Shown: piece by piece, positions 24,791 to 61,050 of the stretch
Numbering within the stretch: position 1 is the stretch's first letter
Layout: each line of letters begins with the position of its first letter
Assembly (NCBI GenBank): GCA_000165345.1
Contig: CM000436.1
Location: forward strand, 96,001-160,000
Direction of reading: 5' to 3'
Length of the DNA: 64,000 nucleotides
Made by a program: the position numbers and the translations under genes
The notes under the pieces: generated by a model
What the model was told of the DNA's origin: nothing
The model's database searches: none
What the model saw: the letters and a program-made list of their open reading frames with translations, nothing else

Positions 24791-24857
24791 GGGGAATTGT
24801 GTAAAAGATTAAAAGAGCTAATTTAGTAGAGAATATAAAGGATGGAAAAGAGGGATT

Positions 24858-25636: not shown

Positions 25637-25941
25637 AGGGTTATAATTTAATTAATTTTATTTTCTAATTGGTTTTTTTTTGCATAGCTTGTATCATATA
25701 TTAAATTATCAATAATAAATGGGTGTCTGCTAATTGATTCAATCCATTCAATCCATCTAAATAGGTAAAGAAAAAAGAGTTAATTTCAAAGTCAGATTTT
25801 GTTCAATTTTTTTTTTTATTAAATAATTTATGTAATCGTAATTATTATTGAATTACGTGTTTTTTGCATGCATGCAAAAAATAACGGTAATTAAATAAAT
25901 TATTAAAAAAAAAAATTGGTATTAGTGATCCCAAAGTAAAC

Positions 25942-28989: not shown

Positions 28990-29157
28990 CCTCCAATTGA
29001 TTTGTTCTCGTCTCTTTCTGAACTTACTCAGCAACTTATACCTTATATATGCATATATTATTTTTGTTTATAAGTATTTTTAAATATATCCAATTATCAA
29101 TAAAATATTCCTCATATTTGCACCTGTGCATGCATTCATAATAATGTGTGACTATTT

Positions 29158-29172
29158 TGATTGGCGCCAACC
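29158..29172. promoter_or_regulatory. E2F-like palindromic box GATTGGCGCCAACCC, about 170 bp upstream of the secreted K/E-rich gene
   Basis: TTGGCGCCAA palindrome read directly. A GCATGCA box sits at 29126-29138. Confidence 0.4.
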
Positions 29173-30066
29173 CATTAGTAATATTAAATTTAAAGATTTT
29201 TAAAGTGAAAAGAAGATATTTTTGAGTTCTAAAGCAATGGAATTTGTTATATAGTTTTACTGAAATGGAAACAGATTGATTGTTTTTTTCTACTTTTTTC
29301 CCCATTCTATCTTTCTTTCATAATAAATTCCAATAAAATACATTGCTAATAGTTAGTTTGTTATATAGAAAAAATTTTTGAATTTATTTGGGGTTTAAAT
29401 TAGAAAAACAAAGATAAATTAAATAATTTTTTGAGTAATCTTTGAAAATTTATTCCAATTCTAATTCTAACTAAATAAAAACTCGTAATTTTTTTTAGAT
29501 TTAAATAAGCTTAAATGTAGAATTAACTTCTAATAGATTTTTGTCATCTAAATTATCAATCAGCTCATATTTCAGTCAAAATTTTTTTTATATTATTGAT
29601 TTATTTTATCCCACATATCATACTTTATTAATAAAAATGATGAAAGATGCACTCACAATTATTTTCAACAATAATGAATATAAAAACCTAGTTAGAAAGT
29701 AAGTGTAATTTCTTCCACTTAATCTTAATCAGTTACGTTTTATTTAATATCTTGTATACCATTAAAATATAAATAACCAAATTAAATAACGTTGGTTTGA
29801 AGTGTTTGCCGCCATTTGTGTGCATTGTATTAAAATAAATAATAAAATAAGATGCGTGTAAAAATATTTGTGGGTTAGAATTGAAATAATTAATATTTGT
29901 GTAGAATTTAAATTAAAATAATACTTTTTGGTATGAGGTGAAGTGGTTTGATAATCATATAATTTATTATTTAGAAACAACCTTAAAAGCCAATTTGATA
30001 TTTAGCCGGAAATATTTTCATTACTTAGTCAAGTCAATTTGACATTAACAAAGTATATTTTCATTG

Positions 30067-30087
30067 ATATATATATATATATATATA
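30067..30087. repeat. (AT)10 microsatellite or TATA-like tract immediately upstream of ATG 30095
   Basis: Read directly. Confidence 0.8.
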
Positions 30088-30515
30088 AAGAAAAATGTCA
30101 GCTGCTGAAGTAAGTTTTGACTACAGGTATACTTGAAGTTTTTTTTTATATTTTTTTTAATTAAAAAAAATATTCAATAGCTCTGTTTCCTTCTTTAGGT
30201 GAGAATAAGAAAGAAACAAAAGCAATAATTCATTTTTTGAATTTTCGAAAATTTATAAATTACTTCAAGTATCCCTTCCTTGCCGTGTTTTCTATTTAAA
30301 CTCAAATACTCATCTTAAACTGCTAGATTGAAAACTGTGCCAACATTCTTGATTGTGAAAAAAAAAATCAATATGATTTAAAACTATCCCATAGAATTCT
30401 AATTTTGGCGGGTGTTTTTGTTAGGTAAGTTTATCGCATGTATTACTTATTAAAGAAGTAAATTAAACAAAATATTTGATTTATAAAATCTAGTGAAGAT
30501 AAAGTACAAGAGTAT

Positions 30516-30944
30516 ATGGAAACCAACTCCAAAACTTCTTTAACCATTGAGGTAAGTCTAATTTCTAAGATTTATGCAATTTCAAAAACGATGTTGTATC
30601 AACCCATAAAGTAAATTATCCAGAAAATTTTTATATTTATTCAACTTTAATACACTCCAATCTTTTTACAGGATTTAAAATCATTTGCGGGAAATGCTAA
30701 GTCAGGTATTCCTACTAAAGATTCTATTAAAAATATGTTTAACCTATTAGATGTTGGTAAATCCGGCCAAGTTGACCTCGAACTACTTAAATATGGACTT
30801 ACATCCATTGGTGCTGACAAATTTAATGGATTTGAAATGGAAGATTTCTACAAATCATTGAATATTAATCTAGAAGAAACAAAAACTGTCACTATTGACC
30901 AAATGGTTGATCATATAATGGAATTACTAACAGCATTCAAATAA
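30516..30944 (+). CDS. Small EF-hand-like protein, spliced; minimal model join(30516..30551,30672..30944), 102 aa, with possible additional 5' exons
   Basis: Terminal exon ORF (…NMFNLLDVGKSGQVDLELLKYGLTSIGADKF…EDFYKSLNINLEETKTVTIDQMVDHIMELL) with EF-hand-like loops. Upstream exon 30494-30551 ends at GAG|GTAAGT and joins in frame to tttttacAG|GAT at 30672. The 120-nt intron contains in-frame stops. E2F-like boxes at 30403-30414 and 29804-29818. Confidence 0.45.
30552..30671 (+). other. Spliceosomal intron (GTAAGT…tctttttacAG), 120 nt, in the EF-hand gene
   Basis: Consensus donor and polypyrimidine-AG acceptor. Exons are in frame only when this is spliced out. Confidence 0.55.
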
Positions 30945-31276
30945 AGTCTAGATTTTACTCCTTATCTGATATCTTAAACTTATTTTAAATCAATTAAATA
31001 TATTACTTTGCCATTTTCATAATTTATTATTTAATGCATATTTATTTCTTTTTTTTAATTTGATTTGCATGATTTTCCCGCCTACATGTAATTATTTTAT
31101 TTAATATTTCATTCTGTCCCATTTTTAAATATTAAATATCAAAATTTAACAAATACCGAAGATTCTGAAAGAACTTGTTCTATAAAAACCTGTTTGCTTA
31201 AGTTAAGAGAAACTTGAGAGTTAAAGAGCTGTTTAACTATTGAAATTGTAAATTATTACATAGGGGAAAATAAAAA

Positions 31277-31425
31277 TATTATATGTATATATAACATATT
31301 ATATGTATATATAACATATTATATGTATATATAACATAATATATATATATATATATAAGTGTATATATATATATATATATATATATGTTATAATATATAT
31401 ATTTATATTTATATATTATTCATTG
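31277..31425. repeat. Tandem repeat (20-bp unit TATTATATGTATATATAACA x3) followed by an (AT)n microsatellite
   Basis: Three near-identical tandem copies at 31277-31336, then long AT dinucleotide runs at 31337-31425, read directly. Confidence 0.85.
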
Positions 31426-31752
31426 ATGTGTGTATAAATCAAATATAATACAGGTAAATTGAATCGAATCAGATAATAAATAAATTAATAATAAAGGTGT
31501 CTGGACAAAGTTCTTTCCCCATTTTTTTTACGCTTATCTGCTTTTCTTTCGACAAAATATCTTTAATATAACTCAAATAATAAATATTACTAAAAAAAAT
31601 AACATTAATAATTCCGATAACTCTTAAATAATTAATTCTGCCAATTTCAATATTCAAAATCACTTAAGATTAGTATTACTATTCTTTTAACTTGATATTA
31701 AAGTATTAATATTCACTTCACACCTCACTATTGATTTATTTTTCATATTAAT

Positions 31753-34960: not shown

Positions 34961-35350
34961 TTCCTTTCCACATGTATATATTGAAAATTATTTTTACCTT
35001 ATATAAACTTTAATTATGATTCACTTATTTCTTAGGCAGATAACTTGTACCAATATCTGAAAAATATATTTATTGTAAGCTTAATTAATTGGTTTATTAT
35101 TATTATTATTATATTTTTTTTTCTGGTTGTTTTGAATAAGTATATTTGAACTTTACTTTTAATGACTTAGCTGTTAGCACTCTAAGTTTTCTTATCTTTC
35201 TATAATGATTAATATTTACACTGTTTTATTCAATGATTTCTTTAAACCAGTATTCATATCACAATTTGTTCTCCATTTCAAGCTCATCCCGTCTAATGTC
35301 GATTTTTATTATTTTTTAAAAATTTTCCTTCAAATGCATTTCCATTTACA

Positions 35351-35365
35351 CACGGCGCCAATTCC
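35351..35365. promoter_or_regulatory. E2F-like box CACGGCGCCAATTCC, about 400 bp upstream of the TSP1 gene
   Basis: GGCGCCAA core read directly. Confidence 0.35.
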
Positions 35366-36872
35366 CCACATGCATTTTAGTGTCATATCCAACCACTAAA
35401 AATTTGACCAAAAAGTTTTTTTTAATAACTTAAATTGTATAAAACAACCTCTAAGTTAACATTTAAGTATTATTAATCTTTGTTTTTATTTATTGTTTTC
35501 AAAATTATTTTATTCCCAATTTTGTCATTGAACTTTAAATAAAGATGGCCTTTCATCTTTTCCCCACATAGTTGCACACGTAATTATAATAATCAGATTA
35601 TAAATATATTTTCTCCTTAAAATTTGGATCTTTTCAAATTGTTTTCTCTATCATTTAAAATTATTCTCATTTTCATTTTCTTATTTCATTCTTATTGTCC
35701 GTTTCTATTGCCATTAATTTAATAATTTTTAAAAACCGTCAAATAATTTCAAAGTATAAATATTAATTTAGTATTTTTTTTCTATAAACTTATTGGTATT
35801 TCAACTTCTTATTATTGTCCACATAATACTGGCATGACAAAAACAAATTATTTTCTTAACTACATACCGGAGTACATGCAATCCTTGCATGTAGTAAAAA
35901 AAAAAAAAGAAAGTTGATATAAGGAAATTTGAAAAAATGAGATAAAATTATGTTGATTAAACTTTCAGAAAATGTACAGAACTTTGTAAATCTTACAACT
36001 ATCGGAAATGAAAGCATTAAATAATTAAAAAATAGAGTAAGAGTTATTGGAATAATAACATTAGTAGATTTAAACCAGAGATAAAAGTAGTTAGTTTAGT
36101 GGTTGCATTAGTACTAGTGGTGCAGTAATAGCAGAAATTATTTTATTCATATTAAGAAAAAATTAATAAGAAAGGAAGTAATAGGTAGTTTTATGTCCAA
36201 CCCGAAATGCAGAATCTAAAACTAAGCTTAAAGTAAAAGAAAATACATTGTCTTTTCAAACATTTGAAGCACAAATAAAAAGCAGTACCAATTAACTGTA
36301 GAGTAAATGCACGACAAATTCAGGGTAAAATTAGAAATTAATTTTTCATCTTAAGTTATTCACTGGAACACTTATTTATATTCAAAAATAAGAGAATTAT
36401 TCAGAGAATTGAAAACTAACACATAAAAAAAAAGATGAAAATTAATAGAAGAGAATTCAATATTAACAAAAAAAAAATTCACAAATTCAAAATACTCTTT
36501 CAATAAAGGGAATAATACGTCAAAGTGACGCAAGTTTTTTTAGGCAGCTCCTCTACTAAATTTAAAAAAAAAATTCATTTATCTCTATTATTATTTAATT
36601 TAAATACAATGCTATATTTCCATTATTAATATTAATTCATAAATATATATTACAGTTCGACCTTTTCTTCAAATTTTATCTATGATTACCGCTAATTCTG
36701 ATAATTTTCATTCTGCTAGTTTTCATATGTAATTTTTAATTAACTACTATTATTTCACAATAAATTCCTATTTATTTTTCATTTATCTATTCTATTAATC
36801 AATCCCTGCCTTATTACCCATTTTTCACTATTACTTTAATCTGACATAAATAGTCGAATAATATATTTTATT

Positions 36873-36940
36873 AGGCGGGAACTCAGAAACAATTTTTGGG
36901 TGCCCCACTTATAGTAATTTGTAGACATTTACCCGCTCAG
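36873..36940. promoter_or_regulatory. Two E2F-like boxes (TTAGGCGGGAACTC; ATTTACCCGCTCAG), 90-150 bp upstream of small ORF 37027
   Basis: Read directly. They imply a transcription start ahead of 37027, either for the 68-aa ORF or for a 5' exon/UTR of the giant downstream gene. Confidence 0.35.
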
Positions 36941-37026
36941 ACAAAGCAAAAGTTTTCTTTAAAGTTAAGATCAGAAAGCTAAATTAATCTATAAAAGGTA
37001 AAAAGACACTAATTCTCTTATAAATT

Positions 37027-37233
37027 TTGTGTTTAAAGAGAATCCAGTGGGGATCTATGGAAAACCATCACAAGCCTGGAACAATCTACTCGAGCTTGCA
37101 GATAAAAGAGGCGATCTTATATGAGCTAAAAAGATTGCCAAAAGACAACAAGGTATTTAGGAGGGATGCTAATTTATTCTTTCTCTCAGACAGAGATTCG
37201 GTTAAGGAACTTTGTGAACAGAAAGAGAACTAG
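37027..37233 (+). CDS. Small 68-aa ORF of uncertain status, downstream of promoter-like E2F boxes
   Basis: ATG in a good context, no low-complexity, and preceded by E2F boxes. It is short, has no recognisable homology, and could be a uORF or exon of the next gene. Confidence 0.25.
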   Translation: MCLKRIQWGSMENHHKPGTIYSSLQIKEAILYELKRLPKDNKVFRRDANLFFLSDRDSVKELCEQKEN

Positions 37234-37456
37234 TATTATTTCTTCATTGGTTGGAATAAAAGACTAATTAAGCTTTAATTAATACTTAAAATTGGAAAAA
37301 TCGATTTGTCTCACTTAAGTTTTAGAAATCTTAATGTTATTTGGCTGATTATTTATGTACATTGGAGTATTATAGTGTACATATCTGAAATCAATACTAA
37401 AACTTTACTTTATGTGTTAAGTCTTCTATCGTTTGATATTTTTTCATTTTGAAACA

Positions 37457-40400
37457 ATGCATAGCAACAAAAGAAAACATAGAAAAAACAAGGAATTTAC
37501 CAATAGTTGGCCTCTAACACTTGACCATAGTTTAATGGAGTCATTGACGAAGAATGTTTCCGCCAGAGAAACCGAATTTTTAGAGGAAGTTAAACTCTAT
37601 AAATCAAGACTAATTAATTCCAATAACTCTTCAACAACTTTAAACTCCATGATCCTTCATTACAGTGACAAATTTCCTGCTGACTCATTCATCTCGAGAT
37701 TGTATGCTAACCCACATTCTATTCTATTTCTATTCAATATTATCCCTCCTTTGCTTTCTTGTTCTAGTACTGGAACTCCTTTTTTAAGCAAAGAAAGATC
37801 AGAAATACTCACTTTTGTTATTCAACTCCTCTTTAAATCATTAATCAAACACTGTCAGATTATCCTCTCTATTGACAAGAGATTAGATAATTCTATTGTG
37901 AATCTGAGTATGAGTTTAACACATCATATTCAAACAGTATTCTCTGGAAATCAAGATCTTGCAATTATGATGAGCTCATGCACAAGTCTATTAATTATCC
38001 TCTCAAATAGTTCAGCTAACTATATTCGAAATATTGTCTCTAACTTTGAAGTCGTTTCTGGTAATTTATCTTACGAATATGATTGTATCCGTAAAATGGC
38101 CTCTAGAGAATCCATTGTCAGCAATAATAAACTCTTTCAAAGACTTCCTTTTCAAAATAACCTTAAAATTGGTAATTTTATCTCATATTTAAGGTATTTA
38201 GAAGGAATTGCTAACCTTTATCTTTTAAATGTTGAAAGACCCAATTTTCTTACTCCTAATAAAAAAGCTACTATTGAAAAAGTTATCCTCTCCATGTCTC
38301 CTGTAGTTCTTGAACAAATGGAGAAACTTATCACTATCTACTTTTCTCAATACAAACCCGAAAATATCTTTGGTGATTATTCTCTCTTTTATGATGGAGA
38401 AGGAGCTAGACTGAAATTTATTGATTTTATTGCACCAATAATTATCCAAACTTCACTCAAATGGGTATCTGCATCTCAAGAAATCAGCCTTAGAAGATTT
38501 AGCAAGTTACATACTAGCTCCTATTTTGATATCTCAAAGTTCCCTAATATCCTTGAAATGGTATTATTACCTATACGAAGGGACCAAATCAGTGATGAAG
38601 TTTCGGATATCATCCTAAACTTTTTAGAAAGTTACTCAGCTCATCTTAGTCTATCAAACAAACACTCTGTACCGATCTCTGTATTATCCAAAAATATTCT
38701 AATCTCATCATTGTTATTGTCAAGCTCAATGAACAAGGATTCTACAATATTCACTTTGAGAGAAGAACTTTCTTTATTAAATACAAACCTAAACTGGCTT
38801 AAGGTTTTAATCAAGTACTTTAAGATCTTTTCTCATTCTTTAGTACCTTTACTAATCATTTTTGATCTAATGGATCTTCCCTTAAACTCTGATCTTGAAA
38901 AGCTAGAGTTTGAGGATCCATCCATTCAAGATTTATATCAAGAATGGATCGATACTTGTTCAACAACTTTTTTGAAAATTGTCTTTGAAACAATTTCCAA
39001 GGCATCTAGAATCTCTAAGGTTAACAGAGCCACATTTTCTGCACCAATCATGATCACATGTGGTGATTATCATCAATCAAAAGATTTGAAGTCATCTGTT
39101 AATGATCAAAGCTTTATCAAGAGTAACTTTGATATTGCTGATATGAGAGTAGGACTTGAGATGGATCTAGATTTAGATCTTGATCATGAAATTCCAAGAA
39201 TTATCGATGATTTTGGTCAAACTTTAGGAATTGATTATAGAAATGATCCAGATTTGGGTTCTGGATTACTTTTTCTGCCAGAAACTCTTAATGTTAATGA
39301 TAATACAAAATTACCATTTAACAAATTATCTCAAAGTAATGTTCATAACAGTACTTCAATGATTCCTAATCCTATTCAGTTTACTGACTTCAAACACCAA
39401 CATATTCATCATTATCAGCACCAACATCAGCAGCATCTTATGGACGTGCCAGATTTTAACATTCAACTAGGCAGTGAAAGTAGCCATATTTTCCAAAAAT
39501 ATCGTCGAGAAGTACATTATTTAATGTGTTGCTTATCCTTAATCACTTTAAGAGGATCATCTGAGTTTATATTACTCTCGATTTCTGGTTGGGGAAGTTT
39601 ATGTAATTCATTGAGAATTTCATCTTCATGTAGTTCATATCTTGAAGATCTTTTAATGATCACCAATCAGACTAAGTTTAAGCCTTTAGAAGAATGCTTT
39701 CAAAAAATTAAAAACCAAAGAGAAAACGTTTCTGACAAATTTGCAGATATTGATGAAATTGGTCTTGTTGGAATACAAAGGTACTTTGTTTGGTCAATTG
39801 TCCAATTAGGAGAATTTCCTGATGAGCTTTATAACTTTGAAGATCATTCAGATTCATATTTCCCAAAATTCTCACAGAAGAAATCGAATCATTTGAAGAT
39901 TAGAGAATCTATCAGAGATGCTGTTAGAAATGCAATATTCTTCCCAGAATCTCCCAATATTGCAAATCCTGGTTTTGATGATAATGATAATAATAATATT
40001 AACAAAATAAATTATCATCTTTCAACAAATTCAAGAGGTATTATTAAATATATATTGCCTTTCTATTCTTTCCAAATGTTCCTTAAAGATACATATCTTC
40101 ATCTAAATGGATTTAATCTTGTTAGTTATATTGGATCTGGACAAATCAAAATTAAAAGATCTATACCAAATACTAATAATATACAAATTAAAAGCTTTAT
40201 TGTACGCTTAGAATCCATTTTACATGCATTTAGTGCAATTATTAAGAAGGGATTAACATCTTTCCCTTTAAGACCTAATACAACCAAAATAACTGAAAAG
40301 ATGGGTAATGATGATCTTAATAGAATGTATAACAATGAAGATGAAATTAGGAGTTTGTTAGAAATGGTCAATGCTTCCTTAAAAATTGATGATGAAGATG

Positions 40401-43400
40401 TAATTAATAGTGAACTTAATAATCGCGAATTAGTTCTTGGTAATGAAAATGACTATTTTGAACAAACTCGAATTCTCTTTGATGCTGTTATGCTTAAAAT
40501 CTTCAAAGTAACTGGCGAATTTGAAGGTCTTATGGACATTTACCTTAGAAATTGTCATCAGAGATTAGCAGACCAAAGAATTATGATTGATGATGGAGTT
40601 AGAGTTTATGAGAGATTATTTAGACAATTATTATGTACTTTAATTACTCTACTTGGAGTTAGCTCAGTTTGGTTTAATGATAAATCCATTCTAGTCACTT
40701 TAAAAGGTCTTAAATATATTTTTAGATCACTACAACTTATTCAAGAAGATCATTTCTTCCCATTGGCTCTAGAACAAGATCATGTTGGAGCCTTAGCCTT
40801 GTTAAAGCTTTCTCAAAACAAGACATGTTTTGAAAATGAAATCTTGGATTATATGGTTGTCAAATGTATGGATTCATTTTCTAGACTATTCTCTGATTCT
40901 AAAAAACAAGTTGAAATTCCCTCAATGACTTTTGAGAGCTATCTAATTCTATTAACTTCACTTGGAATTTGTATTTCACATATCATTTCTGATGTTGATA
41001 AAGATCATCTATCATTCTATTCTTGTACTAATTCACCAAAATCCATTTCAGCAACAACTTCTTCATCAGTTTCAGCTTCAAATGTTGGTAATAACAAAGA
41101 ACATCTTTATCTATTTAAAAAACTACAAAAATGGAAGAAGTATACTGGAATGGTCTTGGAGAAATACTTGTATCTATTAGATAGATTAATTGAGATCTAT
41201 AATGTCAAGATTATGGATCAAGATTCTTTCAAGAATATGGATGGCAATCATGGTAATTGTAGTCATAACAAAAATAAGATACCGGTAACTGATGATGAAA
41301 TTTGTCAAATTTATAATTTATTATTAGTGACTTACATGTTATTTTGTGGACTTGAAGCATTCTTTTCTTCAATATTTCCATGTAAGTATAGGCCGTATAG
41401 TTATGTAATACTTACAATAGGAGCAGAGAAATTTTCTCATTTGAATATTTTGGAATATAGCAAGAAATTATTCGAGTCAGAGAGTAATCTAAAATCTTCT
41501 ATTGCTGCTAAGATTTTAAAGGATGCTTCTAATTACATTTTAGGGTTCTTTTCAAAGGAGTTTTATTCAAGGATAAGAATTATTTTACGTTTATCATGTG
41601 CTATTTCACCAAATTGGTTACAAGTACTTTATCATCCATATACTTGTATAATATCTTGCATACTCCAATTACCATTTTTGAGTACGAATAATATAAATGG
41701 TGAGGGGGGAGGCTCAGACCTTCTTCTTGGGTTGTATAGATATATTGGTTATGATGAGTTCCAATTTCTTTCAATGGACGCTCCTTTTGGCAATCTACGT
41801 GGTTGCGTTGGTGTAATGGGTGGTCATATTATTACTAATAGTAATGGTAATAGTAATAACAGCAACTTGAATATGAGTATTAGCAGCAGTAGTGGTGGTA
41901 GTACCAGTATAAATATTATTAATAATAATAATAATATTAGTAACAATGGTAATAGTAATAATAACAGTAATAATAATCATATTAACAATAACAATAATAA
42001 TATTAATAACAATACTATTAATAATAACAATAATAGCGGAATTGGGATAGGAGGAATGATAGCAGGAATTACTGCTAATAATGGTGTTATGATTCCTAAT
42101 ATCCAGAGAGGTAGAGATTTGGGGAGTAAATGTAATTGTTGTTTTAATGGGGAAAATGAGGGTTTTGGTTCCAATGGGATAATAAAGAAAGGGTTGCATC
42201 CTATAATAACTTTGATCTACAAATTATTACTATTTAATAGGGGGTTAAATGTTGATGCAATTTCTATTACGAAATTGCTACAATCTAACTTTCGGGGTTT
42301 GGGAAACTTTAGTGTTGGTGGAAGTGTGATAACTGGAGGGACAGGAGCGGGAGTAGGAGTGGGAACGGGAATAGAGGTCGGTCTAAGTGGATGGTCACCA
42401 TTATCGTCATCATCCACTTTGGGTTTTGTCAGTAATGGCGGAAATAACCAGAAATATCTTAAGGACGTGTTTAATATGTTGAAAGGGGACTTAATGTTTT
42501 ACAGGGGTGATGGGGGGAATTGTCATAATGGTGACAATCATAATAATGATAATAATAATAATAATGCTTTTTCAAAAGTATGTATTTGCAATTATGTTCC
42601 AAATATTTTTTTACCATTGTCAGTAATGATGTTAAGGGTACCATATTTTACACTAAAAGGGAAGCAGAAATTTTTGGACCCAATATTGTCATTTATTAAC
42701 TCCTTTAAAACATTTAATGTGCATCCAATCATCCAGTTTTTGAGTTATTACTCTGTTAGTGTTTCTACTTTAACTAGCATAAATAGAGATGATTATAAGC
42801 TACAAGATTCGACGGGTTATTTTAGATATTTTAAGAAAGATTCTGGATTACAAGATGTAAATAAACTAAACACCTTTTGTATGTATGTGAATCAGATGAG
42901 TAATTTAGATGGTAATCTCCGAATGAATAATAGCAGAATTGATGATCATTGTTCTTGCTTGGAGTACCATGATGGCGTTTGTTTAACTTTACTATTATTG
43001 TTACAGAATTTGACAAATTTATCAGTAACTAATGATAACTGTTATCCTGGACAAGGGGGAGGTAATACTGGGATGGGAATTTTAGGTGGATGTAATGGAG
43101 CTTATAACGTGAATACAAGCTTCATTAAGATCGTTGGTACTCCGATACGAGCGAATTTGGAAGTATTTATAGAATATGTAATATCAAGATGTATAGTTAC
43201 ATTATTAATATGTATAGGAGCACAAAATTGTAATATAAAGAGAAGAGTAGAAAAGGAGAGGATTATGAATTACTATAATAATAATCCTATAGAGATGAAT
43301 TTAAATGATTATAATAGTTACAATGATGGTTCAAATGGGGCATTATCATCAATTAAATCAATATTCAATGAAAATAACAACAGCAGTAGAAGGATATTTA

Positions 43401-44515
43401 ATCAAGGAGGACCAGTAGTAGATAGAGGAATGATAATTACTACTCCAGGATCCGAAACAATACAAAATATTGGAATAAATGGAGGAGGTATAAGTATGAA
43501 TGGAACAGGATCATATTCTGTGTTATGCGGCAATAATGGTAATAATAGTAATAATAATAATATGAATATGAACAATGTGAATAACAATAATATAAGCTTT
43601 TCAGGGGAAAGTATTTATGATATGGAACCCGATCAGATTAAAGATGAGTTGAAACAAAATGAGATTAATGAAAGGTTTATACCACAAAAACTACTTTCAA
43701 ATCAAAGGTGGGTAGTAATTACAATAAAATATTTACTAGGAACAGAATTTACAAGTAGGATTAATAAACAACAAATTGAGAGATTATTTACAAGCTCAGT
43801 TTGGGGTGTAGAGTTGACAACAACCATTTTATTGGCAATTTTAGAATCATATTGTGATTCTGAATCCTTTTCAATACTTTCCGATATTTTGATTTTAATT
43901 AGACAATTACTTAACAAGAAACGTTTCAGAAATCTTTTAGAAGCTTCGTTCTGCAGACTTCCAATAAGAATGTTGATTCATTCAGCAAATATTTCAACTC
44001 ATTATCCGATGTTACACTTCCCATTAACAAATGGTATAAAAATGAATGATTATTTCTTAAGAAGGGATTTTGAGAAGAATTTAACAAAAAATCATGGAAG
44101 TAATTATCACCAGAAATCAAAGAGTTCTTTGGTTGCTTGTACAGTTCGACAGTTCGTCTATAGACTATTAGAGGAGAATTTCTTTTTAAATTCGAACATG
44201 ATGGATATGGGTTTTCCTCATAATGGGAATAATGGAAATGGTAATATGAATATTTTTGATTTCAATAGTGGTAATTTTGGTAAGAATTTTGTGAATAATG
44301 AAGAGTTTTCCCACATGCACGAGGATATGTCATTTGGCGGGAATGTGAATTATAAACTTCCATATATATTAAAGTCTTCATTTACATCAGATGTGATAAA
44401 GGATTTTATTCAACAGATTGTGAGCGTTTCAGTGTCTCAAACGAACAAGACAAAGTTCAGGCAGATTTTGAAAGAATTTTGCGTAAAATCAGTGTGCAAG
44501 AGAATGGATGAATAA
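37457..44515 (+). CDS. Giant hypothetical protein (about 2352 aa from first ATG) with long Asn/Gly-rich low-complexity inserts
   Basis: Single 7-kb ORF. The track start at 37433 is a TTG; the first ATG is 37457. Non-repetitive alpha-helical-looking segments are interrupted by poly-N and poly-G tracts (for example 41820-42060 and 43500-43580). No domain recognised. Confidence 0.65.
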   Translation: MHSNKRKHRKNKEFTNSWPLTLDHSLMESLTKNVSARETEFLEEVKLYKSRLINSNNSSTTLNSMILHYSDKFPADSFISRLYANPHSILFLFNIIPPLLSCSSTGTPFLSKERSEILTFVIQLLFKSLIKHCQIILSIDKRLDNSIVNLSMSLTHHIQTVFSGNQDLAIMMSSCTSLLIILSNSSANYIRNIVSNFEVVSGNLSYEYDCIRKMASRESIVSNNKLFQRLPFQNNLKIGNFISYLRYLEGIANLYLLNVERPNFLTPNKKATIEKVILSMSPVVLEQMEKLITIYFSQYKPENIFGDYSLFYDGEGARLKFIDFIAPIIIQTSLKWVSASQEISLRRFSKLHTSSYFDISKFPNILEMVLLPIRRDQISDEVSDIILNFLESYSAHLSLSNKHSVPISVLSKNILISSLLLSSSMNKDSTIFTLREELSLLNTNLNWLKVLIKYFKIFSHSLVPLLIIFDLMDLPLNSDLEKLEFEDPSIQDLYQEWIDTCSTTFLKIVFETISKASRISKVNRATFSAPIMITCGDYHQSKDLKSSVNDQSFIKSNFDIADMRVGLEMDLDLDLDHEIPRIIDDFGQTLGIDYRNDPDLGSGLLFLPETLNVNDNTKLPFNKLSQSNVHNSTSMIPNPIQFTDFKHQHIHHYQHQHQQHLMDVPDFNIQLGSESSHIFQKYRREVHYLMCCLSLITLRGSSEFILLSISGWGSLCNSLRISSSCSSYLEDLLMITNQTKFKPLEECFQKIKNQRENVSDKFADIDEIGLVGIQRYFVWSIVQLGEFPDELYNFEDHSDSYFPKFSQKKSNHLKIRESIRDAVRNAIFFPESPNIANPGFDDNDNNNINKINYHLSTNSRGIIKYILPFYSFQMFLKDTYLHLNGFNLVSYIGSGQIKIKRSIPNTNNIQIKSFIVRLESILHAFSAIIKKGLTSFPLRPNTTKITEKMGNDDLNRMYNNEDEIRSLLEMVNASLKIDDEDVINSELNNRELVLGNENDYFEQTRILFDAVMLKIFKVTGEFEGLMDIYLRNCHQRLADQRIMIDDGVRVYERLFRQLLCTLITLLGVSSVWFNDKSILVTLKGLKYIFRSLQLIQEDHFFPLALEQDHVGALALLKLSQNKTCFENEILDYMVVKCMDSFSRLFSDSKKQVEIPSMTFESYLILLTSLGICISHIISDVDKDHLSFYSCTNSPKSISATTSSSVSASNVGNNKEHLYLFKKLQKWKKYTGMVLEKYLYLLDRLIEIYNVKIMDQDSFKNMDGNHGNCSHNKNKIPVTDDEICQIYNLLLVTYMLFCGLEAFFSSIFPCKYRPYSYVILTIGAEKFSHLNILEYSKKLFESESNLKSSIAAKILKDASNYILGFFSKEFYSRIRIILRLSCAISPNWLQVLYHPYTCIISCILQLPFLSTNNINGEGGGSDLLLGLYRYIGYDEFQFLSMDAPFGNLRGCVGVMGGHIITNSNGNSNNSNLNMSISSSSGGSTSINIINNNNNISNNGNSNNNSNNNHINNNNNNINNNTINNNNNSGIGIGGMIAGITANNGVMIPNIQRGRDLGSKCNCCFNGENEGFGSNGIIKKGLHPIITLIYKLLLFNRGLNVDAISITKLLQSNFRGLGNFSVGGSVITGGTGAGVGVGTGIEVGLSGWSPLSSSSTLGFVSNGGNNQKYLKDVFNMLKGDLMFYRGDGGNCHNGDNHNNDNNNNNAFSKVCICNYVPNIFLPLSVMMLRVPYFTLKGKQKFLDPILSFINSFKTFNVHPIIQFLSYYSVSVSTLTSINRDDYKLQDSTGYFRYFKKDSGLQDVNKLNTFCMYVNQMSNLDGNLRMNNSRIDDHCSCLEYHDGVCLTLLLLLQNLTNLSVTNDNCYPGQGGGNTGMGILGGCNGAYNVNTSFIKIVGTPIRANLEVFIEYVISRCIVTLLICIGAQNCNIKRRVEKERIMNYYNNNPIEMNLNDYNSYNDGSNGALSSIKSIFNENNNSSRRIFNQGGPVVDRGMIITTPGSETIQNIGINGGGISMNGTGSYSVLCGNNGNNSNNNNMNMNNVNNNNISFSGESIYDMEPDQIKDELKQNEINERFIPQKLLSNQRWVVITIKYLLGTEFTSRINKQQIERLFTSSVWGVELTTTILLAILESYCDSESFSILSDILILIRQLLNKKRFRNLLEASFCRLPIRMLIHSANISTHYPMLHFPLTNGIKMNDYFLRRDFEKNLTKNHGSNYHQKSKSSLVACTVRQFVYRLLEENFFLNSNMMDMGFPHNGNNGNGNMNIFDFNSGNFGKNFVNNEEFSHMHEDMSFGGNVNYKLPYILKSSFTSDVIKDFIQQIVSVSVSQTNKTKFRQILKEFCVKSVCKRMDE

Positions 44516-46319
44516 ATGTGAGCGTAACCTAAGATAGGTTTGTATGCATGTGGTAATTTTGTATAAGGGCGTACATTAGTGAATGATATTATATATATTT
44601 GTATATATATGTATATGTGCTTATATGTTATAAATATTTATATATAACAATTACAATGTTGTAACCATATTACAAAATGAATACAGATACGCCTGTATGC
44701 AATACTTTATTTTGGGTTTGCCTTTTTTTCCTATTTCAATGTTTTTTTTGCAAGGCAATCTCTTCTTCTTGATTCAATATTGTTTTCTTTTTTTTTGTAA
44801 CATTTTGAATAGTGGGATGCTTTGGAAAGAAAGATAACTTGAAAAAGGGGGAAAGTGTGAACGGTTTTAATATAAAAAATAATATTGAATACAAATCACG
44901 GAGAGATGGTGGGAATATTACAAAGCTAATATGTGTCATTAATTAATTTGATAAAAATTGAAATGGTCTTGTGGGTTTGAGTTTTTGATTACTAATTATT
45001 TAAATGAGGGTTTTTAAAAAAAAAAAAATAATAAAAGAAATGGATTTATTGATAATTTGAGATTAGGTAAAGAAATAATTTTAAAAAATGATTTAAAGAA
45101 ATGATGATTTTGTTTTCTTTAATATTATTACTCTCAATAATAACTAAGTTCGGGCCTTGACACAAATACAGAAAAAATAAGGCGGCAACTCTGGTGCTCA
45201 TAATGCTTCCAGAACTTTAATATAGCCAAGAAGGTCTAACAATTCCAAGCAAGAAAGTCAATGTTTGGTTGGATTATGGGTAATTGGGGTATTTAAAAAA
45301 AGATGTATTTGAAATATGATTTTGGGGGATCCTGGGGACTTTTTTTTTTTTTTTAGATGATACATATTAATGGACAAGGTATTTCTTCACAAGTAAGAGT
45401 TAAAGCTCTTGTGAAAGAAAAAATTTAGGCTAACAATCGAAGGAGAGGGAATTGTTGATCATTACATTCAATATTTATTTTTTAGCTTGCTTAGTATTTA
45501 AATTTGTTGAAAAAAAGAAAAAAAGAAAAAAAAATCATTTGTCATTGGGGTTTATATTGGATTGCTATTAATAAATATTGGAATGCTGGTTTTTCTAACA
45601 TTTCGATATGTATTACCGATGTTCAATGATTATTTGTATTTATTTAAATAATGAATGAATGTTTATGAATACACTCGAATATATCATTTTCAATTTAAGA
45701 TAAGAGGCAATTATGATCATTTTTTCCTCTCGTTTCTTGAGGAAATGATGATTAATATATTGTGGGGGAGGAAAGTAGAGTTGTTCTTCTCGAGTAAAGT
45801 TTTAGATTGTGAATTAGGTGGGCAGATGGCGTGAGAGTTTTGAGATATGGATGAGTTTGAGTGGGTTTTGGATGCAGGATGGTGGCGAGTGCGTTAAAGG
45901 AGGATTAGAGGAGGGGGAGAATAGAGAAATTAGAGTGAAAGGAATTTAAGGAGTTAAACTTAGAGATTAGCAATATGAATATTTGTTAGGATTTATTGCG
46001 GATGTTTTTTGAGAAAATTTAGTTTGGTATGAATGAGTGAAATAGAAACTTGTGCAATCTCACCTGATTTTGTGAAATATCATTTTTCATTGGAATTGAA
46101 AGGTAATCTTGTGATTCGGTTATAACTCTGAAATTTTAGTCAATTTTCTAGAGTTAGTAAGATGTTGTCATAGGAATATGTTGTTTCAAATTGTACATAT
46201 TCTGAATTAAATTTGTTAATTTGTTTGTGTCATGTTGAAACATGCAGTGGCGCCATTAACTAATTTTGTTAATTGTATTAGTAGTATTTAAATTTAAAAA
46301 AAAAAAAAATCAAGAAAAA

Positions 46320-47073
46320 ATGAAGATAACAAAAAAGAGTATATTACTTTATATACCAAATTTGATAGGTAAGTTTTCTTGTAAATCATTTATAAATATG
46401 AGAAAATATTAATAGCCTTGACTTAAATTATAAACTTTATAACAAAGGGTACTTAAGAATATTATTGGGATTGACACCACTAATTATTAGTACCGAGTAT
46501 TACTATATCTCAATACTTTTCTATGGAATAAGTCAGATTTTAGATGCATTTGATGGATATTTTGCGAGATTATTATCTCAAGAAACAAAATTTGGAGCTA
46601 TATTAGATATGATTACTGATAGATGCAGCACAGTAATAATAATAATATTAGCAATCACATTAAATAAGAGCTACACATTTTTGATGATAATATTTTTGAT
46701 AGGAGATATTTCTGGTCATTGGCTATACATGATTTCAAGTATTTCATCAGGAGGAAGTTCACATAAAAGTATTAAAGAAGAAATGTGGCCGATTTTAAAA
46801 TTATATTATTCAAAAAAACCATTATTATTTACATTACATGCATGTAATGAAGCTTTATGGTTAATTTTATATGGCCAGGGATGTATTTACGATAAAGCTA
46901 CAAACCTAAAACAATTAAATCAAATTGATAAAAAATTCATTCTAGTAACATCATACTCTCTCTACATGATTCTGCCACTTGCCTTGATCAAAAATATAAT
47001 AAATTTTGTTCATTTATTTTATGGTTGTAATATTATTTTGGAAACTGATGTTAAAGAAAGAATGAAAAATTAA
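46320..47073 (+). CDS. PIS: CDP-diacylglycerol–inositol 3-phosphatidyltransferase (phosphatidylinositol synthase), join(46320..46368,46448..47073), 224 aa
   Basis: Exon 1 MKITKKSILLYIPNLI + G joins to YLRILLGLTPL…, giving the canonical N-terminal IPNLIGYLRI. CDP-alcohol phosphatidyltransferase motif DAFDGYFARLLSQETKFGAILDMITDRCST. Intron is GTAAGT…acaaAG, 79 nt, phase 1. Confidence 0.7.
46369..46447 (+). other. Spliceosomal intron (79 nt) in the PI synthase gene
   Basis: GTAAGT donor at 46369 and AG acceptor at 46446-46447. Splicing restores the conserved NLIGY motif and the reading frame. Confidence 0.65.
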
Positions 47074-47245: not shown

Positions 47246-50200
47246 TTACTTATCACTAGCGCTTGCCCCGCTATTATCAGCCTCTGGATTTCGCTCCAGA
47301 ATTACAATATCCTCAATAGCACTACAAGCTGGAACAAATTCATCAGTTGCTAACTCTGCTCTCTCATTAAACCCAAGAAGAACTGGAGTGTTGTGTGTCT
47401 GGAATCCCGTAATCTTTCTTGGATTCCCTGCTTGCCCTACAGTGTCTACCATCTGCCCCACACGTACCAGAGTTTGTATTGGCGCCAATGACGTGTCGAC
47501 TGTGACAACATGTCTGGGAGTAATAGCAGGAACAATTGAGAGTAAAAGATAATGATAATTGCCAAAAAGAATAGTTCTAGACCTTAGAGCAAGATGGAGA
47601 GTTGTGATAATGGAAACCAGACTTATTGGATTTAAAAGAAGTTTGTTTGCGTGGCAAGGATTCACTGTTACGAGACCTTTACCCATATATAGAAAACCTT
47701 GAGCAATTCTGACTGCATAAAGAGCATGCTTATCTTTTCCATAATACGAGGCCAACTGTCTCAGTAAGTTGGCAGTTCTAGAGTTATTTGTCCCTGCTGA
47801 AATTAATCCAAGAGCAAAAATTGCATTAAGAGCAACATCTGGATCGGAATCGTGGGTTAGTTTGGAAATTGTGTCTATCAACACTGGTTTAGGATTTCCA
47901 ATTGAAAGGGCAGCCAAACTTATTGGAACAGCTCTTCTAATAAAAACTGATGAGTATTGAAGGACATTGTCAAGTGCTCTAAGTGCCATTTCAGTTCCAA
48001 TTTCTTCTCCAAGACTTATTAATGCCATGTTTAATACGCATACTAATACTGAAATATCTGATTCATCATCATCCATTTGATCTTCATCCTCAGGTAGCTT
48101 CTTTCCTCCTTTAGCAAGGGTCTCCTCAACAAGAACTCTCTGCATTTCTTGGATCTTAAGTACATCTCCTGATCCTGTGTATGCACACCCAACCACAGTT
48201 TGTCTGCAGTGAGCTCCTATTGGATGAGTTATCGCAGAAAGAGCTTCCAAAGTTGTCTCACAAGCCTCTCGTTTTCCCAAAAAGAGTAATCCTAGACATA
48301 ATCCATAAAGGATACTTAAAGGATCATCTAAGAAGGAATTACTTTCAAGTTGTGAATCTCCTGTAGATTTCTTTTTATCTTCGCCACTATTAGATAAATC
48401 TCCATCTTCCATACTTGCACTAGTGAGTCCAATTGTCAGAAGAAGGTCCAAAACAGCTTCAATAATACTCTGATTTCCGGATCCTGAGAATATTAGTCCT
48501 AATGATAAAGCAGAAATAGCTGAACATTCTAAGCTTGAGAAAGGATCNATNNNGATTGGAATTAGTAATTCCAAGNTATCTTCTCGGCAGGTACCAATAT
48601 ATGAATAACCAAGGCCTAAAATAGCACCCATTCTAATGGTATAGTTTGGAACAGCCGTTTTGATTATTGAAATCTTATTATCATTTGAGTTATTTGCTGA
48701 TTCACCAACTATTTCCATCTTTACATCATCCCCTCCATCTTTACTACCGCTAGTAGCTACCTCTTGGATTGGTTCGTCTCCAGAATTGATATATTCAGAT
48801 AAAAGAGCAAAAGAAGGATCACAGTCGTTCTTGATTCTGATAGAAATTAATCCAAAAGCTATTAGAGCACCAGCTTTAATAAATGGATCATCACTCCACT
48901 GAAACTTATCAATGTTAGCCAAACCTTCATCAATATTCCAAAGATTAATCACTCCCAAGGAGGCACTTACTGCCATCTTTCCGGAATCCTTATTCTTATA
49001 GAGCCAGGATGAATCATCCTCTCCAATTAGTTTATCCTTACAAAATCCAACATTTACTAAGGCATTCACATATGTGGATGCTAAATTCTGTTTTGCTGTA
49101 TCCAAAACCATCATTGATCTACTAGAATACCTACCATTATTTTCCAGGTGGGTCTTGTAAATTTCCTCTGGAGTTTTTGGCTCAAGAACCTCCAATTCTT
49201 TTGCTAAGAATAAATAAAATTTGCTAAGATATTCATTTGAAAAGATACCTTCAATTATGGATAGCTCAGATTCTCCATAGATCTTACAGAAATCCCTGCT
49301 AACTAAATGAGCTTTAAGCTCCTCTAAGTCTATATTACTTGAGAATTTAGCAAGTTGGAAGAAGATTTGCTTCAAAATACTCAATCCTGAGACTCTGAAA
49401 GTGTTTGATGAGCTTGAGATATTAGAATCATTGGCCTCATCCTTAACTTTGTCCTTCTTTGATTCATATGACATTATATCATCTATTACAGAAAATACTT
49501 TCTCTTTACAATTTTGACCATCCAATTTAAGTGCTATAGAAACAGCCCAAGAGTGCTTTTCAAAGCTTAAAAGTAGCTCAAAGCAAAGTTTCAGATATAA
49601 ATCATGTTCTTCTGCTGATATAGCATATTGAGAAAGTTGTTGTAGGTATAATACGATCCTTTCCATTTGTTCAATATCAATTTTAGCTAAATATTCCAAT
49701 AATGTCTCCATTTGCTCGACTTCACAGAGCAGATCAATAGCTTCCAGTTCACAGTGCTTCTCAATCTGATAAGGTACCATAATCTTAACCAGTTCAAGGA
49801 GATCAGAAACATCTGCTTCTTGATCTGAGACTCCTGATAAGTCTTGGTTTGTTTGTCTTTCTGAATATTCTAATGTAATTTCACCTACAATATTTCTGAC
49901 ATACTCTTGACCCCAGTCTAATATTCCTTTCTTGTTTCCAGAAAGTAATCTATACTTTAAAGCTCTTTTCTCTTTCATATCCCCCAAAGTAGTTGATAAA
50001 ACAGAAATAATCTCACAAGAAAGTTCAGAAAGTTGACCTTTATTGGAAACCTGGGAATCACAAAATTCTTTCAGAGTTTCATAATGTATACCTAAGAACT
50101 TTAAAGCCTTTGGAACAGATGTCATTCCACTAGTAGATGTCTTTATTAAGCTCGAAAGGGATTCCAAGCTGGACTTAGAAACCTCAAACTCGGACTTTCC

Positions 50201-50362: not shown

Positions 50363-50754
50363 ATTACTTTGAATTCTCTCTTCCTAACTCTTCTAATTAT
50401 CTTATATTCCAATTCCCTCTCTCAAACCATTTCCTTATTACTTTGTTTTTTATTATTTTATTTTTATGTGAAAAAACGCTTTGCCTCTCAAAGCCTAAGC
50501 CAAGCTATTCACCCGCCCCACAGTTTTTTAATTTATTTTCTTATTTTTACCCTGCAATCTACTTACTCAAAAATTTATGTATTATTAAAATTTTCAGTGT
50601 GTGCGTGCTTATCAACCTCAAACCCTAATATTATTGCTTCCAAATGAATATCTAAACCGATAATATCCTGGTTTTTTTTAATAATATTAGAACTCTTATT
50701 ATCCTTTCCTTTTTTACCTGTATTTATTTTTTACCCTGGCATTATTACAAAAAC

Positions 50755-50792
50755 ATTTGGCGCCGGAATGTGGCGCTGATTTTTAAGCGGGC
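50755..50792. promoter_or_regulatory. Bidirectional promoter element with tandem E2F-like boxes (ATTTGGCGCCGGAATGTGGCGCTGA…AGCGGGC)
   Basis: Lies between divergent RPN2 (start 50362, -) and UEV (start 51081, +). Read directly. Confidence 0.45.
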
Positions 50793-59297: not shown

Positions 59298-60222
59298 ACC
59301 TCAACTCTTTGTTTAAAATAATATTTAGAAATATCCTTTAATAATTATAATTTATATAATATATATATTATAAGGATTTATCATTCAAATAATAAAAAAT
59401 TATAATTTTTATTTTGACCTTTCCCCATTTTTTTTGAATTTTTTAAACGTAATTTTTATTGATATTCATTTGATGCAACTTACATCCATAATAATTTGGC
59501 ACATGCTTGTATTGCAAATATGCATGCATGCAATTTTGTTACAAAATGACAAATTGTTACCGCCATTTCTAAATTATTGCATGTGGAAAATTATATGAAA
59601 AAACGAATAATAATGTTATTTAACTAAAATACGAGAATAAGGTAATTAGAGTTGAAGTTTTTTTATAACAACTAATACGAGTATAAGAATTTCTAGTTGT
59701 AATTATTTTTAAACAATATGAAAATAATATAGAGCAATCATTGGGAATTAATAGTAAATGTTTAAAAATAGTTTTTGTTAAATTTATGATTCTTTAAATA
59801 AATTAAAATATTATTTTTCTCTTTTTTTCAGAAAAGAAGTATAATTATAATTTAAAGGTCAATGCAATTGTTAAAAGTGTAATTATTAGAAATTCTAAAT
59901 AAATTAAACTCTGTAACAATAATAGTTCTTTAGAGACTACTCATACTATCTGCGAACTATTCAAATAAACACTTCGTACTATTTACTGATTAAATAATGA
60001 AAAAATCAAGCAATGCATTTTTCACATCCTGGTGTGAAGATTTTTTAAAAAAGGGCAAGTATTTATGTATTTATATTAGTTTTCTAGCCCTTCAAAACTC
60101 TATAAATCTTAAAAGTGAGAGTGGTCAAAATAAATAGTGGTAATTCTATGGAACTTATTTTATTATTATTTCTTTTTTATCATTCTCAGCTATATATAAG
60201 AATTTGACAGTAAATCACTATT

Positions 60223-60287
60223 TTATTGGCGGCAATTTGTCAATTTTCAAGTATAATAAAAATTTTAGAATACTTTGGCGGTAAATG
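60223..60287. promoter_or_regulatory. Two E2F-like boxes (TTATTGGCGGCAATTTG; TTTGGCGGTAAATG) in a long ORF-free region
   Basis: Read directly. They lie about 770-830 bp upstream of the PSMD5-like gene and may drive an unannotated transcript. Confidence 0.35.
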
Positions 60288-61050
60288 TGATTTATATTAA
60301 TCCTAATTATTTAATTATTATATACTGGTAACATTTAATAAAGTAATAATAACAAAAGGCAAAGTGAAAAGTAAATAAATATACAAGTTAAATTTTACGG
60401 AATAAATATATTTATTTATAATTTCTTTATTGAATGACTTATTTTCCCATATCAATATTAAGGGAGTAGAGATTAAAATATCCCTATGTTTGGAATGAAT
60501 TCAAATAATGAATGCATCCTTATTAGATAGTACAATATTTTAATGTGAACGCCTGTATCTAAGACGACATGCTGCAATTACCACTTGTTCGTTAATTCAC
60601 CCTGGCAATATTGATTTGAGTATGGAAATGAATTATTCAATATAATACTGGTCAGAATTTTTTTACTTTTGGCTGGGTAAATAAGTGCTCAAATAGGTGA
60701 ATATTAATTTTTCCCACCATTCGATACAGTGAATATTGTTATGAATAAAGTGGGTAGGTTTAAAGTTCCATAATCTTAGAGATAGAACTACAATAGAATA
60801 TAGGATGTTCTAGTTCATATAAGGATGCCGAAATTGAGGAATTTTGACCACCCGGGATGTACATTGTATTAAGGTGGCCTTGATCGGTTATATTTGTTAT
60901 TCTTATTCGTTTAGGTGATTCTGGCGCACACAAAGATAATATGTCAGTCTCGAAAAAATAAATAAATAAATATTAATATTCCAATTAATTAATTAGGAAA
61001 AGAAAATAAAGAAAATTGAATTGATATAAATTTTGAGATCATTTCCAAAC

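Follow-up and report, generated by a model that had tools for sequence, protein, structure and literature searches.

What occupies the 1.8 kb without a credible open reading frame (ORF) that separate the gene CPATCC_0038550 from the PIS gene (CPATCC_0038560) on chromosome 8 of Cryptosporidium parvum? This gap (44516-46319) is part of a 64-kb window, that is, the whole stretch of DNA analysed here, to which all positions refer, and the locus is situated approximately 135-148 kb into the 1.34-Mb record. The gap is genuinely non-coding. It contains a clade-restricted, non-coding island of 420 nt (45090-45510), which is its only constrained part, and, closer to PIS, a G-rich, C-poor block (45764-45943), which is the compositional extreme of a window-wide skew. 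The gap may correspond to an unannotated non-coding transcript or leader of the + strand, with the island as its promoter or core, a reading that is put forward tentatively and with slightly less than even confidence. The coordinates of the features are collected in Table 1.

A maintained non-coding gap upstream of PIS

The gap begins immediately after the stop codon, at 44515, of the 2360-aa ORF of CPATCC_0038550, a + strand gene without domains, and ends at the ATG of PIS, at 46320 (not 46321). The spliced PIS product is 100% identical to the C. parvum CDP-diacylglycerol-inositol 3-phosphatidyltransferase, and the downstream neighbour of PIS, RPN1, is encoded on the minus strand. As a sequence-only reading of this DNA had stated, no credible ORF is present over 1.8 kb. 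Indeed, the longest one measures 67 aa, none is preserved in related species (in which the indels are not multiples of 3), a Pfam search of the gap ORFs gave no match, and two GC-richer species have no ORF longer than 51 aa within their own gaps. One ORF of the gap (59 aa) was retrieved from the protein collection by exact look-up, as an automatic call on genomic Logan contigs and not on transcripts. A missed or spliced protein-coding gene was considered and rejected on the basis of indels of 1, 2, 4 and 5 nt in the island and the G-rich block, of the lack of a conserved frame and of the lack of a Pfam match; small ORFs or micropeptides were also rejected, being unconserved and without Pfam matches. 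Furthermore, a tRNA scan detected no tRNA, and a BLAST comparison of the gap with the remainder of the window returned homopolymers only, with no paralogous copy.

The orthologous loci of other C. parvum isolates, C. hominis, C. tyzzeri, C. meleagridis, chipmunk genotype I, C. ubiquitum, C. canis, C. felis, C. bovis and a relative from SRR31860986 were compared, and a gap of approximately 1.3-1.9 kb without a called gene was found to be maintained in 10 Cryptosporidium genomes or species. The mean intergenic distance published for the C. parvum genome is 504 bp (PMC7840661), and ORF-free gaps of 1.5-2.7 kb, of which the window contains four others (24388-25941, 29035-31752, 34961-37432 and 59298-61032), are approximately three times this length. 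In a six-species alignment, invariant columns represent 72% of PIS exon 2, 78% of RPN1 and 40% of the gap overall. Within the gap they range from 6-8% in the G-rich block to 52-86% per 50 nt in the island, and moderate conservation is observed in the first 50 nt past the upstream stop codon and at 44850-45000.

The locus from SRR31860986 (Logan, contig 670) is syntenic and Cryptosporidium-like, with a GC content of 44%, and its PIS and RPN1 are 71% and 83% identical, respectively, to those of C. parvum. This organism is nearer to C. parvum than C. felis or C. bovis are, and constitutes a useful divergent comparator.

Strand asymmetry of the gap

Over its whole length the gap comprises 361 G and 149 C (skew +0.42), and the absolute skew of the other gaps and ORFs of the window is at most 0.29. 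The segment 45764-45943 (73 G, 8 C, 51 A, 48 T) has the highest G-minus-C value of all 180-nt stretches of the 64 kb, on either strand, and the skew of the tract as first delimited (about 45780-45960) is reached by only 0.4% of the 180-nt stretches in the window. The initial description of a G-rich tract almost without C, atypical and strand-skewed, is thus borne out.

Averaged over the 23 other genes of the window, GC skew on the sense strand starts from about 0 at position -500, climbs to +0.29 in the last 100 nt ahead of the ATG, drops to about +0.1 inside genes and returns to about 0 past stop codons. Several stretches among the most skewed ones correspond to 5' leaders or N-terminal regions, taken on their sense strand (for example upstream of the gene at 20724, of UBC and of RPN1). 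In the PIS gap, the skew is stronger (0.8) and spread over 1.8 kb, including 600 nt past the stop codon of the upstream gene. Indeed, the 3' flank of CPATCC_0038550 has a skew of +0.57 to +1.0, versus about 0 for the 3' flanks of the other genes. Since skew marks 5' leaders and is about 0 past stop codons, the gap resembles a leader and not a 3' flank.

These values bear on the possibility that the gap is mostly untranslated region (UTR), with a long 3' UTR of the 2360-aa gene extending through the island and followed by the PIS leader. Such an arrangement would agree with the location of both genes on the + strand, with the presence of AATAAA at 45030 and 45570 and with the moderately conserved stretches next to the upstream stop codon and at 44850-45000. 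However, in addition to the skew of this 3' flank, a 3' UTR of 0.5-1 kb would be unusual given the mean intergenic distance of 504 bp, and chipmunk genotype I and C. ubiquitum do not share the AATAAA at 45570; this arrangement is considered very unlikely.

Substitutions were polarised by parsimony in the parvum-meleagridis clade, with chipmunk genotype I and C. ubiquitum as outgroups. On the + strand of the gap, A>G substitutions (65/365) are in excess over T>C substitutions (33/395; p = 1.3e-4). The A>G excess is found on either side of the island (p = 0.005 and 0.001) and is absent within the island and in the pooled other intergenic DNA. A weaker bias towards A>G is also seen in the leaders of RPN1, UBC and the hydrolase gene when each is read on its sense strand. 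Transcription-associated mutation is known to leave an excess of A>G over T>C on the coding strand, and from the + strand excess we infer that the gap is transcribed on this strand.

GC skew around transcription start sites, together with A>G over T>C asymmetry, has been described in plants, fungi and mammals. The locus is similar in that sense-strand G>C peaks in the 5' leaders of the window and in that only the unconstrained parts of the gap show the A>G excess; it differs in that the skew extends over the entire gap at a level far above that of the 23 other genes, the link with transcription being presumptive. As both signals mark 5' leaders in the window, they might be of use in the search for transcription units of Cryptosporidium that have escaped annotation.

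The G-rich block

The G-rich block is the least conserved and fastest-evolving part of the gap. The blastn alignment with chipmunk genotype I breaks across 45671-45909, no alignment of the block was obtained with C. ubiquitum, and indels of 1, 4 and 5 nt among close species indicate that it is non-coding. Half of the refuting outcome named at the outset was thus observed: no Rfam hit was obtained, and the sequence of the block is not conserved outside the parvum-meleagridis clade. Its G-richness nevertheless persists, as the 180 nt of the gap with the most G lie at -505 to -558 from the PIS ATG in C. parvum, C. hominis, C. tyzzeri, C. meleagridis and chipmunk genotype I and at about -515 in C. 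ubiquitum, with 71-75 G per 180 nt in the parvum-meleagridis clade and 51-53 further out.

A G-quadruplex had been proposed as a check for this block and was sought as four runs of at least three G with short loops, or as a G4Hunter score of about 1.5 or more. No canonical three-tetrad motif was identified: a G3+N1-20 motif is lacking throughout the gap, the G4Hunter scores of 25-nt segments reach 1.36 at best, and the runs of at least three G in the block are spaced 40-55 nt apart, leaving two-tetrad motifs only. No tandem or dispersed repeats of note and no Rfam match were detected in the block, and a scan for bacterial promoters and terminators, irrelevant for a eukaryote, remained at background level.

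Matches to the G-box (G.GGGG, DTGTGGGG), which is bound by the ApiAP2 protein cgd8_810 (PMC3734150), occur at 45760, 45762 and 45911 (G.GGGG at 45911). Two G-box matches are about the number expected by chance in so G-rich a tract. In brief, the block is the compositional extreme of a window-wide skew, possibly with some selection for G-box sites; it is neither a discrete structured RNA nor a G-quadruplex element, and it is not a new kind of element.

A separate repeat was noted around these features: TAAAGAAATGATT is present in approximately three tandem copies at the 5' edge of the island (45068-45105), and a core copy, GAAATGATGATT, is located just before the G-rich block (45737-45753). These copies may represent a repeated protein-binding motif.

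The conserved island

From C. parvum through C. ubiquitum, C. canis and the SRR31860986 relative, the island is conserved to a degree comparable with coding DNA. Homologues were identified in C. canis by profile search (E = 1e-17) and in the SRR31860986 relative by nhmmer (E = 1e-11), and none was detected in C. felis or C. bovis by nhmmer, BLAST or a covariance model; the same three methods revealed no second copy in the window. The island is non-coding: every frame is interrupted by stops, indels of 1, 2 and 4 nt occur, and its 51-aa minus-strand ORF is broken in C. hominis and C. ubiquitum. Three of its blocks (AAGGCGGCAACTCTGGTGCTCATAATGCTTCCAGAAC, GTTGGATTATGGGTAATTGG and ATTCAATATTTATTTTTTAGCTTG) are invariant or near-invariant from C. 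parvum to C. ubiquitum, and 24 consecutive invariant columns are found at 45466-45489, within the most conserved block of the island. The G-tracts at 45320-45339 and a following T-run of 8-15 nt are maintained in 7 species, and a long C/T tract takes the place of the T-run in the SRR31860986 relative.

When GGGTAATT, CAAGTAAGA and the T-run followed by AG were read as possible splice sites, the GT or the AG was found to be lost in C. canis, the SRR31860986 relative, chipmunk genotype I or C. ubiquitum. In addition, the 14-mer TAGTATTTAAATTT, followed by an A-rich run, occurs twice in the gap, at the 3' end of the island (45492-45505) and right before the PIS ATG (46282-46295); the copy in the island is conserved across species but the PIS-proximal copy is not.

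The island could act at the DNA level, as a distal regulatory module for PIS or for a neighbouring gene, the G-rich block then being a drifting cluster of G-box/GAGA-type sites, with no stable transcript. The island does carry an E2F-like motif (45179-45189) and the block carries the three G-box matches given above; phospholipid biosynthesis is over-represented in clusters of genes that carry G-boxes (PMC3734150), comparable conservation is seen upstream of RPN1, and the island gives no thermodynamic folding signal. However, the invariant runs of 18-24 nt and the blocks of approximately 40 nt exceed typical binding sites, the G-boxes are lost beyond the parvum-meleagridis clade, the motifs lie 560-1140 nt from the ATG, compared with -70 for an invariant E2F site, and binding sites alone cannot account for a composition and a substitution bias that are strand-asymmetric over 1.8 kb. 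A purely DNA-level role is thus regarded as rather unlikely. Compared with the upstream motifs described in Cryptosporidium (PMC3734150), the matches at 45179-45189, 45760, 45762, 45911 and 46248 are exact, whereas the G-boxes of the gap are clade-specific and situated much further from the ATG than the -70 site.

RNA structure and known RNA families

The energy calculated by RNAalifold for the island is -36.5 kcal/mol on the + strand versus -22.2 kcal/mol on the minus strand. The model includes a candidate helix of 17 bp, in which 92% of the cells are paired, 25% of these as G.U; read on the minus strand, the figure is 70%. Three of the 17 pairs are changed on both sides, as are four pairs in the whole model (a number reached by 28/500 shuffles), and the covariation score is reached by 9/500 shuffles, all the measures being reached by 3 to 28 of 500. 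Minimum-energy folds of single sequences do not recover the candidate helix. The hairpin at 45386-45415 is the one solid structural element of the island: for the region 45380-45420, z = -3.0 and 2/200 shuffles fold as well, the CACA/UGUG stem is present in 8/8 species, and chipmunk genotype I and C. ubiquitum have paired 2-nt insertions. The evidence for the island as a structured RNA, which comes from these models, is mixed.

The GC-rich patch at 45170-45215, the sequence of which is as originally quoted, had been suggested to be a structured small RNA. This suggestion retains some support, in that the patch is located in the conserved island and provides one arm of a helix with some covariation; the patch also contains the E2F-like match.

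Extended to the island, the same idea gives a discrete, Cryptosporidium-specific structured small RNA on the + strand, of approximately 200-260 nt, running from about 45090-45140 to the T15 at 45340-45354; it might be transcribed by RNA polymerase III (Pol III) and could be one of the intergenic non-coding RNAs (is-ncRNAs) reported for C. parvum (PMC9465071). The pairs of the 17-bp helix that are changed on both sides, the proportion of paired cells, the few shuffles that equal the model, the dependence of the helix on + strand G.U pairs and the T-run of at least 8 nt in 7 species would all be consistent with such an RNA. In the same report, 43 novel intergenic is-ncRNAs were described in C. 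parvum, 15 of which are conserved only in its close relatives (PMC9465071), a distribution that the island matches. However, the z-scores are not significant, single-sequence folds vary by species, conservation continues for 150 nt past the T-run, this run is replaced in the SRR31860986 relative, and no Rfam match was obtained, so that a discrete small RNA appears clearly unlikely. With the published is-ncRNAs and long non-coding RNAs (lncRNAs) of C. parvum (PMC9465071, PMC7840661), the island shares an intergenic position, a non-coding nature, a single copy, a distribution in part of the genus and the lack of an Rfam family; it differs from them in being known from sequence alone, with weak support from RNA structure.

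Known families were also searched. No Rfam model matched the 64-kb window at gathering score, the best match in the gap (44516-46319) having an E-value of 2.9, far below gathering, and relaxed searches of the gap and of the orthologous loci of C. ubiquitum, C. canis and the SRR31860986 relative produced only low-complexity noise of the miRNA type (lowest E 0.007-0.3), well under the gathering scores in all cases. On the minus strand, AAAGUCCCC at approximately 45336-45344 resembles the CR-I motif of RNase P/MRP, RNAs in which CR-I and CR-V together make up the P4 helix. In C. parvum, U1, U2, U4, U5, U6, U3, SRP and RNase P are each encoded by a single gene detected by Rfam models (PMC9465071), and the MRP RNA is located at chromosome 4:381884-382317 (PMC1796607 supplement). 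RNase MRP and RNase P were therefore rejected, the MRP gene being on chromosome 4, RNase P elsewhere, and AAAGUCCCC being without a downstream GGGG or GGGGAC-type P4 partner. A C/D box small nucleolar RNA (snoRNA), which would have a C box (RUGAUGA) close to its 5' end, a D box (CUGA) close to its 3' end and a terminal stem, was rejected as well: the C-box-like AUGAUGA at 45101 is lost in C. ubiquitum, there is no CUGA on the + strand of the island, and the snoR30 match has an E-value of 7.5. Inspection of the alignments by eye for C/D and H/ACA architectures showed that neither the boxes nor a second hairpin are conserved.

For a telomerase RNA, the hallmark looked for was a conserved template complementary to at least about 1.3 copies of the telomere repeat, which in Cryptosporidium is TTTAGG. 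This identity was rejected, as no (CCTAAA)n match of at least 8 nt is present on either strand of the gap in C. parvum and 6 of 7 other species; the gap of chipmunk genotype I contains two unconserved template 8-mers, and the template 7-mers right past the upstream stop codon are lost in chipmunk genotype I or C. ubiquitum. To our knowledge, no telomerase RNA of Cryptosporidium has been described, and a literature search yielded no report of one. Elsewhere in the window, TAAACCTAAAC (1108-1118, minus strand, in the 819-nt gap 868-1686) is an 11-nt match to the complement of (TTTAGG)n, which is the form of a telomerase-RNA template; as chance alone would give approximately 0.25 matches of this kind per 64 kb, it is probably fortuitous.

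The identity of the gap with a member of a known family (snRNA, that is, small nuclear RNA, SRP, RNase P/MRP, telomerase RNA, snoRNA) or with a missed protein-coding gene thus appears extremely unlikely. The resemblances of AAAGUCCCC and AUGAUGA are set against the lack of an Rfam match in four species, the chromosome 4 location of MRP, the missing P4 partner and D box, and the lack of a conserved telomere template of at least 8 nt, of a conserved ORF and of a Pfam match. Among the candidates put forward by the sequence-only reading, snRNA, SRP, RNase P and telomerase RNA are accordingly excluded or unsupported.

The PIS promoter and interpretation of the gap

TGGCGCC and CATGT of the PIS promoter are invariant in six species, the E2F match being that at 46248, and of all the motif matches only those at 46248 and 45179 are conserved. 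The alternatives of a long PIS 5' UTR or a G-rich regulatory element, raised from the sequence at the outset, retain some support: two G-box matches and a leader-like composition are in their favour. The conserved proximal promoter of PIS goes against the former.

In the favoured interpretation, the gap would most likely be transcribed in the direction shared by its two flanking genes (+ strand), giving either a non-coding transcript that has escaped annotation or a PIS leader extended upstream. The island would be the functional part, as promoter and/or as the conserved core of the transcript. The G-rich block would represent the extreme of the sense-strand G>C skew typical of the 5' leaders of the window, and this skew would accumulate, in the unconstrained parts of the gap, through the strand-asymmetric excess of A>G over T>C. 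Transcription of the gap, its strand and any role of the island are what we infer from several observations: the skew of the gap is unmatched in the window and leader-like, and the A>G asymmetry is present in the flanks of the island; the G-rich block is the least conserved part yet keeps its composition and offset, and the island is conserved at the level of coding DNA without a coding signal; finally, the G.U pairs of the helix exist on the + strand only, the hairpin has a z-score of -3.0, and E2F-like and G-box matches are present.

Several points weigh against this interpretation. The main start site of PIS is probably proximal, because an invariant E2F site and an ACATGC-type element are located approximately 70 nt before the ATG. 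This proximal promoter is the chief argument against a simple long 5' UTR of PIS, and a leader passing through the G-rich block would contain several upstream ATGs. In the published C. parvum lncRNA set, the locus is represented by two lncRNAs antisense to CPATCC_0038550 (window 37433-44515), Cp_lnc_67 and Cp_lnc_68, only, and no gap sequence was found in the searched part of the sequence file of that set (PMC7840661). The polarisation by parsimony relied on two outgroups and on an alignment that is poor in the G-rich block. As regards structure, the covariation measures are within the range of related but unstructured sequences, the segment 45085-45345 folds no better than shuffles (z = +0.57; other strand, +1.28), and the island core has z-scores of -0.9 to +0.5 in four species.

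In a further proposal, regarded as possible but somewhat unlikely, the island would be a lineage-specific non-coding RNA gene that arose after the split of C. felis and was kept, as well conserved as coding sequence, in the clade infecting humans and livestock, and the flanking skew would mark an unusually active, unannotated + strand transcription unit modulating PIS expression. In mammals, G-rich R-loop-prone elements for pausing or termination are known between closely spaced tandem genes. By pure analogy, the gap has a G-skewed non-template tract approximately 190 nt past an AATAAA and approximately 300 nt before the next promoter, but it differs in that its AATAAA is not conserved. If it is a real RNA gene or regulatory module, the island adds one non-coding element, conserved but limited to a clade, to a parasite genome that is very compact and in which gene regulation is poorly understood. 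It adjoins an essential lipid-synthesis gene.

Table 1. Positions of the features of the PIS locus in the 64-kb window
Feature	Positions	Strand	Remarks
Non-coding gap	44516-46319	+	Between CPATCC_0038550 and PIS (CPATCC_0038560); C-depleted on the + strand throughout
Conserved non-coding island	45090-45510	+	Conservation per 50 nt in six species given in the text; contains the GC-rich patch 45170-45215
E2F-like match (DTTGSCGCCH), AAGGCGGCAAC	45179-45189	-	Motif from PMC3734150; invariant from C. parvum to C. canis
Candidate 17-bp helix, 5' arm, ACUCUGGUGCUCAUAAU	45188-45204	+	RNAalifold, 8 sequences
Candidate helix, 3' arm, AUUAUGGGUAAUUGGGGU	45273-45290	+	RNAalifold, 8 sequences
G-tracts TTTTGGGGGATCCTGGGGAC followed by T15	45320-45354	+	Possibly a terminator of the Pol III type, or else a pyrimidine tract
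Conserved hairpin, UUCACAAG...CUUGUGAA	45386-45415	+	UAAGA internal motif; z = -3.0
Most conserved block of the island	45456-45507	+	TGATCAyTAmATTCAATATTTATTTTTTAGCTTGyTTAGTATTTAAATTTGT; recognisable in C. canis and the SRR31860986 relative
G-box motif 2 match (DTGTGGGG), TTGTGGGG	45760-45767	+	Motif from PMC3734150; kept in the parvum-meleagridis clade only
G-rich, C-poor block	45764-45943	+	Fast-evolving; only the composition is conserved
PIS core promoter motifs, GTCATGTTGAAACATGCAG (ACATGY/TGCAT type) then E2F site TGGCGCCA	46229-46255	+	Approximately 70 nt before the ATG; motifs from PMC3734150
PIS gene	46320-47073	+	Exon 1, 46320-46368; GT..AG intron, 46369-46447; exon 2, 46448-47073

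Other features of the window

Nine ambiguous bases (N) are present at 13408-13415 and 48548-48576, some of them within the coding sequence of RPN1, which indicates a record of draft quality. Three of the other ORF-free gaps (29035-31752, 34961-37432 and 59298-61032) comprise 1.7-2.7 kb without an ORF of at least 120 aa, and genes that are small or spliced, or further non-coding elements, may be present in them. The gap 24388-25941 contains, on the + strand at approximately 24840-25110, a small G-rich open frame of about 95 codons, in which D, E, G and R are frequent. It resembles a small coding gene that falls short of the 120-aa ORF cut-off, and the second most G-skewed stretch of the window (24775-24954; 61 G, 6 C) is located in it. 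Finally, the 380 nt preceding the ATG of RPN1 (50363-50745, read on the minus strand as sense strand) are G-rich and C-poor on the sense strand of this gene, and the part 50363-50600 is 70-84% invariant in six species. E2F-type sites (GCGCCA, GGCGCC) are located at approximately 50750-50775, between the RPN1 and UBC leaders, and the whole has the appearance of a bidirectional promoter with a long, conserved leader.

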